Source: a virus (taxonomy: Duplodnaviria; Heunggongvirae; Uroviricota; Caudoviricetes). From it: a DNA stretch of 46,314 bases. How positions within the stretch are numbered: the first letter of the stretch is position 1; every line of letters starts with the position of its first letter. Below, in pieces: positions 1 to 3,000 of this stretch. The position numbers were made by a program. The DNA lies in the IMG/VR virus record IMGVR_UViG_2880361019_000007, one strand, 5' to 3'.

Positions 1-3000
1 TGCCAGCATCCTTTTTGTATCGGACGTAAACGGGCCAGCATTGAAAGAATGCATATTTTATTTAATAACTCCCGTTCGTGTTTTCTCTTGTTAATGGCAT
101 CTTCAGTAAATACAGGGTTACTGATAGTGACACCAATTTCAAAACAACCTTCAGACGTATTAACGTTTGGTAATAACGTTTCCATTATCGCGTCCTCAAC
201 AATGAATTTTGTGATGCGATGCCTGGTGCCTCCAGGTGACGTTAACCAGTTAACAATTAACGCCGGATACAGAGAATCCACCCATAACACTGTTTTTGGT
301 TTTAACTGTTCCGCGTGCGCTCAGCCGCATTCACCACATCACAAAATTCACTTTAAAAAGGGCGGCAGAGCAGTCACGGAGTAAAACTGATACCGCCAAA
401 CGTCACCAGAAAATTGATAACAGAGGGCGTTGCAGCGGGGTTGTCACTTAAGCGTATGGTCAACCTGACAACCCGGTGTCCTCAACGGGGGAAGGAATAA
501 CCCCGCCATACTTACCGCCGCGCCATTTCGCGGATTGCCACAACCGGAAGCGCACGGTCGAACTAAATTTAACGACACCGTACAGAGAGACCAATTTCGC
601 CGTGCGCTTTCGCGTTATGGTCTGACTTTTCAGGGAAATATCCTTTCAGTAAACTGTCAATGCCGGATGCTCACCCGTGTCCGGCGCACGCACTCCACCT
701 CACCCGTGGAGAACTCCTTAATTACTAACCTTAGCTTTGTTGATTAGCTACTAACGCGGGTATGTAATCATTCTGGCAATGCTTAATGCCGCTGCTTTTT
801 CCAGATTGGTGATATCCTGCTCCAGAGCGGACAGATTTTCAGCCTGCTTAGCCCTGGCTTCATTGGCCCATTTCAAATCCTGCGCTGCATTAATTTTCTG
901 GCGCATCCACTCATAAAGTTCATCATCGGTATAGTCTGGCGCGATGATGACGGGTTCTCGTTTCTGCATACTGATTCCTCGCGGTGCTGTTTCGCTTATC
1001 AGCCGTTAGATTTTGCCGAACTGGAAAGCGCCTGTTTAAATTCGTTGAAGCCGAGAGCTTCTTCGCCGTCGGCAAGACCTTCGAAGTATTCTTCGTAAGC
1101 CTTTTCCATGATTGTGTCGAAATCCATATCACTCACCTGAGTTTCTTTCCAGCCAGCGACGGGCACCATTTTCGGTTTTAAACGTTTTGCTTTTGGTATA
1201 CGTCATCGCGGTGAACGTGCCGTCTTGGTTGGGAAACACGCCGCATACCAGAGATTCGTTGTTGCCAAGATCGATAGTATCCATGTTGACCTCATTTCCC
1301 CTTAACGCCGGGGTAGCGGAACTGTTTGCTGAGAACACAGTGCGGTGTCTTGATGGAGGTGATTTAGTTTTCTCATTGTTTTTCGTCAAGGTTTTTTGAT
1401 GAGAAAACTCAAGCATTGACGCAAGATAAAGCCAATACATTGAAATGTAAGGCTTTAAAATTTTGTGAAGGGATGATTATTGATGCTTGTTGCGTTTGCG
1501 AGCCTCTAATAGCTCGGTGAACAGGCGATTAAAATTCTCAACGCGGGCGCGGAGTTCGCTGAGTTGTGCTTGTTGCTCTGATTTAGGAAGTGCGCGATAC
1601 AAACGCAACATCTCTAACTCATCTTCCGATAAGTCTAAGGCACTATCGAGTGAAACAGGGGGAGCTGGTGTTTTGTCCTCGTCGCCAAACAGTATCCAGG
1701 TTGGTGAACATTGCAATACCTCGGCGAGGCGATGCAAATTTTGCCCGCGCGGGGCTGTATGGTCACTTTCCCATAATGAAATTGATGAGCCAGATACGCC
1801 AGCAGCTTTGCTTAAACCGTTTTGACTTAAGCCTACCTGCTTACGTCTTTCTCTAATGCGTTGACCTAAAGTTTTCTCGTTCATATTTAGATATCTTAAT
1901 AACCCTTGACTTGAGATTCCTTGAGTGATTAGCATTGAGAAAACTCAATATTGGAGGTGCGATGTTTAAATCAGACGTAATTAATTTTTACGGTACGAAA
2001 GCTAAAGTAGCGAAAGCTGCTGGCGTTGACCCATCTGCTGTTTCTCAATGGCAAGAGCTGGTTCCTGAAGGTCGCGCGATGCGTCTACAGGAGGCATCTG
2101 GCGGCGAGCTTCAGTATGATCCCAAGGTTTATGACGAATATCGTAAGACGAAGCGGGCGGGGCGGTTGAACAATGAAAATCACTCCTGAACAGGCTCGTG
2201 AGGCTCTGGATGCCTGGATATGTCGACCAGGAATGACACAGGAGCAGGCGACGATATTAATCACTGAAGCATTCTGGGCTTTGAAAGAGCGCCCGAACAT
2301 CGAGGTTCAGCGTGTCACAGATGAAGGTGGCGCGGTTGATCAGCGAGCGCTTGGCGTTAATCGAGTGAAGATATTCGAACGCTGGAAGGCTATCGACACT
2401 AGGGATAAGCGTGAAAAGTTCACGGCGCTAGTGCCTGCAATTATGGAGGCTATCCGGATTAATGATTTCAGGTTGTATCGTGAAATTAGTGACGGAAAAA
2501 GCATCACGTACATGATCGCCGGGTTAAACAAAGAATATGGCGATGTGGTGGAGTCCGGACTGCTTTTTGCTGATCCTGCCGTAGTGGATCGTGAAACTGA
2601 CGAACTTATAGAAAAAGCAATTGCTTTCAAACTTGCGTATCGACAGCAATACCAACAAAAAGCTGGATGGAATTATGAGCCTTCTTTTTGCTGAACGCCC
2701 ACTGGTTATAAACACACAGCTTGCGATGAAGATTGGCTTAAATGAAGCCATTGTGTTGCAGCAGTTGCATTACTGGTTGAGAGATACCAATTCCGGCATG
2801 GAATGTGATGGTGTTCGCTGGATTTACAACACAACGGAACAATGGCTGGAACAGTTCCCATTCTGGTCAGAGTCAACGTTAAAGCGCGCGTTTGCAAGTC
2901 TGAAAACGCTGGGGCTTTTGCGTTGTGAAAAGCTCAATAAATCAAAGCGCGATATGACCAATTTCTACACGATCAACTATGGGAGCGAGCTTTTAGATGG

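Follow-up and report, generated by a model that had tools for sequence, protein, structure and literature searches.

In a 46,314-nucleotide (nt) stretch of IMG/VR record IMGVR_UViG_2880361019_000007 (hereafter the window; all coordinates follow its plus-strand numbering), we identified a divergent repressor/Cro/CII-analogue immunity switch. The locus is very probably the ordinary lysis/lysogeny control region of a common Escherichia coli lambda-like (Qin/mEp460-like lambdoid) prophage, of the DicA/DicC type and with a differing DNA-binding specificity. Three open reading frames (ORFs) make up the switch, the last two of which overlap:

1477-1884, minus strand: immunity repressor of 135 amino acids (aa), DicA family, with a P22 C2-like helix-turn-helix (HTH) N-terminal domain and a short helical C-terminal domain
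1962-2189, plus strand: Cro-type repressor of 75 aa, DicC/P22 Cro family
2173-2694, plus strand: YdaT-family protein of 173 aa, putative CII analogue and intact form of K-12 ydfX

A preliminary description of this DNA had placed a repressor on the minus strand facing a Cro-like and a YdaT-like gene on the plus strand, and the ORF calls recovered this arrangement together with its coordinates. It had also assigned the locus to the RacR/YdaS/YdaT type. When aligned with these three families, the locus matched YdaT, scored below threshold for YdaS and did not match RacR. The module is already known and is a textbook lambdoid immunity region of curated families; our additions are a corrected label (DicA/DicC/YdaT-family, not RacR/YdaS) and a sequence-level prediction of its operators.

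The repressor scored 239.4 bits against the NCBIfam DicA model NF007257 (cut-off 101), with residues 1-135 of 135 covered, and is 57% identical to K-12 DicA. Using Pfam, we detected HTH families only (HTH_3, 56.9 bits), and using PDB we found that the N-terminal domain of P22 C2 (1adr) matches residues 1-72 (E 8e-16). The C-terminus comprises 63 residues past a conserved linker. No Peptidase_S24 match was found at E <= 0.01 in the Pfam scan, which agrees with the earlier observation that the S24 autopeptidase domain is missing, and because this domain is missing, derepression is expected to occur without RecA-stimulated self-cleavage. The assignment of the repressor to RacR did not hold, given that the best BLASTP E value against RacR was 5 and that no RacR match appeared in the K-12 protein comparison; RacR itself has no HTH_3 match. 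A longer start at 1935 (152 aa, annotated in phage HannyBb) was rejected, since the DicA model, RefSeq and the record of phage mEp460_ev081 all fit 135 aa and also because the longer ORF would run through the predicted operator OR1 and the rightward promoter PR (listed below).

The Cro-like protein matches the NCBIfam DicC model over its full length (167.6 bits, cut-off 130) and Pfam P22_Cro (61.6 bits, cut-off 30.2), and the structure of P22 Cro (PDB 1rzs) matches it with an E value of 8e-13. It is 71% identical to K-12 DicC overall, a value that combines about 35% identity in residues 1-31 with 100% in residues 32-75. Against Pfam YdaS_toxin (PF15943) it scored 23.0 bits, under the gathering cut-off of 30, and the similarity to Rac YdaS is weak (33% over 43 aa). 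Rac YdaS itself also matches P22_Cro, and the relationship between the two proteins is at the superfamily level only. Of the former label Cro/YdaS-like, the Cro part can thus be kept and the YdaS part dropped.

The call of the third gene as YdaT-like was confirmed. The 173-aa protein matches Pfam YdaT_toxin (PF06254; 26.1 bits, gathering cut-off 21) and PHROG 163 (E 2.5e-40; annotated as CII-like transcriptional activator). With a profile built from seven of its homologues, we found PDB 8bt1 (the YdaT of CP-933P, E 3.9e-4) and 3c4r (E 2e-3). The latter was also the top and sole credible Foldseek match of its AlphaFold model (probability 1.00, E 0.02, TM 0.40/0.53), and the fold comparison is supportive, not decisive. 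An R-W pair is kept in the recognition helix (FERW, aligned to F-RW and HRW). In the literature, YdaT is described as a CII analogue (PMC9986795, PMC11879457); it binds DNA as such, with YdaS as the Cro analogue, and the two are not regarded as a toxin pair (PMC5917428, PMC9986795). The protein is also 97% identical to K-12 YdfX over 93 aa, on which basis YdfX is a truncated copy of the gene, and the intact gene shows the former state of K-12's truncated ydfX. At the cro/ydaT junction, using the YdaT-box consensus TTGATT-N6-AATCAA, we found one further element:

2166-2183, no strand: TTGAACAATGAAAATCAC, resembling a YdaT-box; its spacer contains the start codon of the ydaT-like gene

The register of TTGAACAATGAAAATCAC equals that of the footprinted Rac YdaT-box ATGATTCATGAAAATCAA (PMC11879457), with nine of 12 positions matching, and we retain it as a positional lead only. 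No other inverted repeat that could serve as a CII-type site was found at the junction, and no reverse promoter for the repressor was detected in a sigma-70 scan of 1200-2250.

The locus was aligned base by base with the dic region of the K-12 prophage Qin. Identity is about 95-100% over 701-1355 (ydfC, ydfB, ydfA and the leader), falls to about 55% over 1356-2057, and returns to about 95-100% over 2058-2452 (covering the 3' half of cro plus 93 codons from the start of the ydaT-like gene). The diverged block begins at the leftward promoter's -10, takes in the repressor gene together with the divergent control region and ends in mid-cro. Within the repressor, identity to DicA is 45% in residues 1-56, 94% in residues 57-72 and 57% in residues 73-135. 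Judged from this alignment, 1356-2057 is a classic lambdoid immunity-cassette substitution. The parts are modular, since one of the loci compared (L010) has the K-12-type cassette joined to a full-length ydaT-like gene.

Outside the swapped core of about 700 bp (operators, DNA-binding part of the repressor and N-terminus of Cro), the window resembles Qin in gene order and orientations, in its 135-aa repressor without S24, in the identical C-terminal half of Cro and in the near-identical leftward operon. The positions of promoter and operator are also equal at both promoters. The rightward promoter of Qin (TTGACT-17-TATCTT) is followed by the operator Oc, TTGTTAGTTATGACTAACAA, and that of the window (TTGACT-18-TAGCAT) by ATTGAGAAAACTCAAT; at the leftward promoter, Qin and the window alike have one operator in the spacer/-10 and one just upstream of the -35. 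The operator sequences themselves differ, being ATTGAG-N4-CTCAAT in the window and TTGTTAG-N6-CTAACAA in Qin, and for this reason the two should be heteroimmune. Unlike K-12 Qin, the window has an intact ydaT-like gene and retains replication, lysis and structural genes.

The divergent stretch between the repressor and cro genes (1885-1961) is 77 base pairs (bp) long, and both this gap and the 135-aa start are also annotated in RefSeq and in the mEp460_ev081 record. It had been called very short, yet it is typical of its class, as the corresponding gap measures 77 bp in mEp460_ev081, 83 bp between dicA and dicC in Qin and 123 bp between racR and ydaS in Rac. The TTGAG half-sites and the palindrome that had been pointed out there are enriched and recur at both promoters. 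TTGAG occurs at 1911, 1921 and 1935 and CTCAA at 1944, four half-sites in 77 bp where 0.16 are expected from the window's own frequency (Poisson P ~2e-5). The palindrome extends to a perfect 16-bp inverted repeat (ATTGAG-AAAA-CTCAAT, 1934-1949). With up to three mismatches, this 16-mer has three matches in the 46-kilobase window (0.32 expected), all within the immunity locus (1362-1377, 1398-1413 and 1934-1949). For this immunity type, we predict operators of the form ATTGAG-N4-CTCAAT at five sites, listed here with the two promoters:

1885-1900, no strand: predicted operator OR3, ATTTAGATATCTTAAT, adjoining the repressor start codon
1906-1935, plus strand: rightward promoter (PR, equivalent of dicCp), TTGACT, 18-nt spacer, TAGCAT
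1910-1925, no strand: putative weak middle operator OR2, CTTGAGATTCCTTGAG, inside the cro promoter spacer
1934-1949, no strand: predicted operator OR1 (equivalent of Qin Oc), ATTGAGAAAACTCAAT, overlapping the cro promoter -10 and start site
1361-1389, minus strand: leftward promoter (PL, equivalent of dicBp), TTGACG, 17-nt spacer, TAAATC, assigned by homology
1362-1377, minus strand: predicted operator OL1, AATGAGAAAACTAAAT, overlapping the leftward promoter -10 and spacer
1398-1413, plus strand: predicted operator OL2, GATGAGAAAACTCAAG, just upstream of the leftward promoter -35

Four of these sites are well conserved. The core of OR1, TTGAGAAARCTCA, is conserved in E. coli variants of about 90% identity and in two Buttiauxella loci with differing flanks, and its position coincides with that of the Qin operator Oc, for which DicA binding has been shown both by genetics and in vivo (PMC3441716). 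OR3 fits ATTNAG-N4-CTNAAT with no mismatches and is invariant in all six aligned loci, Citrobacter braakii among them. The OL1 stretch TTTAGTTTTCTCA is invariant in five loci with differing flanks. OL2 is likewise conserved in five loci and has a 13-nt exact repeat, TGAGAAAACTCAA, in common with OR1. The distance between OL1 and OL2 is 36 bp in the window and 35 bp in Qin. Both Buttiauxella loci, whose repressors are 74-76% identical and whose flanks are unrelated, and the E. coli variants retain OR1, OR3, OL1 and OL2. OR2 lies about midway, its centre 24 bp away from that of OR1 and 25 bp away from that of OR3; it has one good and one degenerate half-site, with only a TGAG core conserved. A weak fifth copy of GAGAAAACT within the first repressor codons (1870-1878) differs from the 16-mer at five positions, and we did not include it among the operators.

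The rightward promoter was the sole sigma-70-like site found in 1200-2250; its -35 is conserved across loci and its layout is like that of Qin dicCp. The leftward promoter aligns position by position with Qin dicBp (TTGACC-17-TAATCT). Between OR3 and the repressor ATG, no Shine-Dalgarno sequence was seen, and we infer that the repressor has a leaderless, PRM-like promoter. The lack of a good -35 and of a Shine-Dalgarno sequence at the repressor start agrees with reports on dicA, and the message would resemble the leaderless lambda cI message.

Leftward transcription leads into an operon that is also close to that of Qin, in which ydfA is followed by ydfB (93% identical), ydfC (100%), DicF and dicB. 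The features on this side of the switch are:

1427-1457, minus strand: conserved hairpin directly after the repressor stop codon (fold -12 kcal/mol, z = -3.98)
1129-1284, minus strand: ydfA (Pfam DUF1391), first gene of the leftward operon, 98% identical to K-12 YdfA
360-411, minus strand: DicF small RNA (Rfam RF00039, 76.7 bits)
1-185, minus strand: dicB, cell-division inhibitor, cut by the window start (tblastn, 90% identity to residues 1-60 of K-12 DicB)

The Buttiauxella loci have kept the core of the hairpin, CAAYACATTGAAA. The hairpin may act as a terminator and keep repressor transcripts out of the dicBF operon, or it may be a protein site of an unrecognised kind. A further leftward operator, the third, at about 1430-1450 was considered and is less likely, as the operator motif suits the conserved element there less well than a hairpin does. 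The earlier emphasis on toxicity of YdaS and YdaT was off target: the documented toxic outputs of DicA-type loci are DicB and DicF, both of which are present here, and derepressing this switch would release these two division inhibitors.

The family memberships, the cassette swap and the recurrent, conserved operators are results of the sequence comparisons; by homology with Qin, Rac and CP-933P, we propose a mechanism that extends to the binding partners, to autoactivation, to CII-like action and to Rem as inducer. The DicA-family repressor would bind the 16-bp operators ATTGAG-N4-CTCAAT, three of which are predicted within the 77 bp, with OR1 covering the -10 and start site of the rightward promoter, and two of which would flank the -35 of the leftward promoter. 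Its binding would silence both the cro/ydaT-like/O-like replication operon and the ydfABC-dicF-dicB operon, and the repressor probably stimulates its own weak, apparently leaderless promoter. In Qin, DicA binds Oc, represses dicC and activates dicA, and dicA transcription requires DicA bound at Oc (PMC3441716). The DicC/P22-Cro-type protein would counter-repress the repressor gene, leading to bistability, and the YdaT-family protein, as a CII analogue, probably boosts repressor synthesis during the establishment of lysogeny. Derepression would come from a Rem-type antirepressor together with intrinsic instability of the repressor. The candidate inducer lies further right:

8848-9108, plus strand: homologue of Rem-type antirepressors, 72% identical to K-12 Rem

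DicA/DicC is described as a RecA-independent bistable switch that is derepressed by Rem, and K-12 Rem derepresses the DicA-controlled dicBp 165-fold (bioRxiv 10.1101/2023.04.14.536235). In K-12, spontaneous, heat and urea induction are RecA-independent, and there is no induction of dicBp by mitomycin C (10.1101/2023.04.14.536235). As another possible inducer, the HTH and M78 gene at 7584-8690 was considered as an ImmA-like repressor-cleaving protease and rejected, as it is the RmrA half of a RosmerTA pair (RmrA 349 bits, RmrT 86 bits).

Rem alleles do not co-vary with repressor alleles (window, 8848-9108, plus strand; locus L020, 36287-36538). In phage mEp460_ev081, the window-type repressor allele occurs together with a Rem of 96% identity to that of K-12; the Rem of the window is 72-74% identical to the K-12 and mEp460_ev081 proteins and carries a 4-residue insertion. 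This distribution suggests that Rem does not track the DNA-binding domain of the repressor. We raise, as a tentative and on balance doubtful idea, that Rem-type antirepressors act across heteroimmune DicA alleles, because mEp460_ev081 pairs a diverged repressor (45% in the DNA-binding part) with a K-12-like Rem. The pairing would fit a Rem that recognises the repressor by its conserved linker and its C-terminal part, with 94% identity in residues 57-72. If it were true, the antirepressor of one prophage could derepress dicBF or trigger induction of another DicA-type prophage that is heteroimmune and shares the cell, and E. coli would have a Gifsy-style crosstalk.

An almost identical switch is present in the functional temperate phage mEp460_ev081 (LR597641.1), with which the 702-bp cassette is 99.0% identical. 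The two agree in gene order, in the 77-bp gap, in the YdaT-like, O-like and LygF/DUF977 genes and in a downstream rem. They differ in the rem allele (the window's Rem is 74% identical to that of the phage) and in the RosmerTA, IS1 and other accessory genes that lie between switch and rem in the window. The dicAC-like and rem genes of mEp460_ev081 have already been noted in the literature (10.1101/2023.04.14.536235). The cassette is also present in phages HannyBb and PhiR42_1, where its genes are annotated as cI, cro and cII. Among 5426 complete E. coli genomes, 797 (about 15%) carry it with at least 90% identity. Contigs binned in metagenome-assembled genomes of Bacillota, Veillonella parvula and Collinsella (L005, L006 and L010) carry the E. 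coli prophage region with 98-100% protein identity and are almost certainly mis-binned Enterobacteriaceae phage DNA.

Among better studied systems, the P22 c2-cro region provides sequence relatives of the repressor N-terminal domain (E 8e-16) and of Cro (E 8e-13), and likewise has divergent genes and a tripartite operator. In contrast, C2 has an S24 autocleavage domain and undergoes RecA-aided cleavage, where the window repressor has a short helical C-terminus. OR3 (ATTTAG-ATAT-CTTAAT) resembles what we take to be the operator half-site of P22, ATTTAAG. The racR-ydaS-ydaT region of Rac and paaR2/ydaS/ydaT of CP-933P are analogous in architecture, in that a YdaT-family CII analogue follows the cro-like gene and, in the window as a lead only, starts within a sequence like a YdaT-box (PMC11879457, PMC9986795), but the repressor of the window is unrelated to RacR and its Cro is of the DicC/P22 type. 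The YdaT of the window belongs to a distant subfamily (41% identity over 29 aa to Rac YdaT, 173 vs 140 aa, ERW vs HRW). GfoR and GftR of the Salmonella Gifsy prophages are likewise short, non-cleavable repressors that are inactivated by a small antirepressor, and DicA has been grouped with these (PMC3121763). The Gifsy antirepressors differ in being LexA-controlled, as a LexA box ahead of the Rem homologue was not found in the window.

The architecture shared with Rac could mean that the locus is homologous to the immunity region of Rac, as a RacR/YdaS/YdaT module of that type. In favour are the identical gene order, a short repressor without S24, the place of the third gene in the YdaT Pfam family and the weak similarity of the Cro-like protein to YdaS (33% over 43 aa), which for its part scores on P22_Cro; DicA and RacR have moreover been placed in one functional group of short antirepressor-controlled repressors (Lemire et al., PMC3121763). 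We nevertheless consider Rac homology very unlikely, as the repressor lacks RacR similarity (E = 5), RacR has no HTH_3 match, the YdaS_toxin score is under its cut-off (23 bits, cut-off 30), and the three proteins are 57%, 71% and 97% identical to those of Qin, with flanks of 95-100% nucleotide identity. That the cro-like and ydaT-like genes are a toxin-antitoxin pair whose derepression kills the cell is suggested by the Pfam names YdaS_toxin and YdaT_toxin and by the filamentation and death that follow ectopic expression of Rac YdaT (PMC11879457). This is extremely unlikely, since ydaST failed toxin-antitoxin tests and both proteins are DNA-binding Cro/CII analogues (PMC9986795, PMC5917428), the same genes occur in viable temperate phages, and in the window they lie upstream of an O-like replication gene in standard lambdoid order.

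The switch could also be a domesticated remnant in a defective prophage, acting as a host regulator of dicB and dicF as in K-12 Qin. We regard this as possible but rather unlikely. IS1 and IS21-family insertions are present in the element, the window starts inside dicB with int and xis outside it, and many of the copies in the 797 of 5426 E. coli genomes that carry the module are likely to be cryptic. In contrast to Qin, however, the element still has a complete ydaT-like gene along with the O-like gene, Q, genes for lysis and an entire complement of head and tail ORFs, and the gene broken by IS1 is an accessory one and not part of the core. Were it correct, remnant status would alter the biological role of the locus and not the mechanism of the switch.

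Several points count against the DicA/DicC control region that we prefer, or against parts of the mechanism proposed for it. The data on binding and repression by DicA and on its inactivation by Rem come from the K-12 allele (PMC3441716; 10.1101/2023.04.14.536235), and the mechanism proposed for the window allele is carried over from it by homology. At the operators, OR2 is a weak match, the two operators of Qin other than Oc did not bind DicA alone (PMC3441716), and no recognisable -35 was found for the repressor's own promoter. For the YdaT-family protein, the AlphaFold model is of moderate quality (pLDDT 64, with C-terminal helices under 50), and its recognition helix reads ERW where Rac YdaT has HRW. 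Matches to the YdaT-box-like motif occur at chance level (22 observed vs 22.6 expected), and the box was rejected as statistical evidence. A scan of the window for CTGT-N8-ACAG found no LexA box upstream of the Rem homologue (8848). LexA control of this gene was rejected: the scan gave two matches, one at 8134 inside the rmrA coding sequence and one at 44222, with about 0.7 expected.

To the right of the ydaT-like gene, the window encodes an O-like replication gene, a DUF977/'Ren-like' gene, an accessory gene disrupted by IS1, hok/sok, the RosmerTA pair and the Rem homologue, after which come ydfU-like, Q, lysis, head and tail genes. The O-like initiator (2675-3640, plus strand) ends in ...IPPGFRG, as does Rac YdaU, with 68% identity between the two in their final 19 aa. 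Between the O-like and DUF977 genes, we saw no DnaC/P-like loader gene. The IS1 copy (about 5150-5900, with InsA/InsB-type ORFs at 5181-5456 and 5375-5878) splits a gene into flanking ORFs at 4456-5130 and 5880-6263, and the N-terminal part of this gene has weak matches to DUF4917 and to PDC-S21, a candidate defence family. The hok/sok-type killer locus (6466-6790, plus strand) scored 107.5 bits against Rfam sok, and its Hok peptide is 100% identical to K-12 HokD.

The RosmerTA-type anti-phage pair (6956-8690, plus strand) consists of an RmrT-like protein of 216 aa (6956-7606) and an RmrA-like HTH and M78 peptidase protein of 368 aa (7584-8690). It occupies the position of relBE in K-12 Qin and is followed by a strong terminator-like hairpin (about 8696-8720). 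Between Q and the lysis genes, we detected a NanS-like prophage esterase accessory gene (14505-16373, plus strand) that encodes 622 aa with DUF1737, SASA sialate O-acetylesterase and DUF6645 domains. Finally, at the prophage's right end, genes for IS21-family IstA (513 aa) and IstB (249 aa) are inserted past the tail-fibre genes (43605-45907, minus strand).

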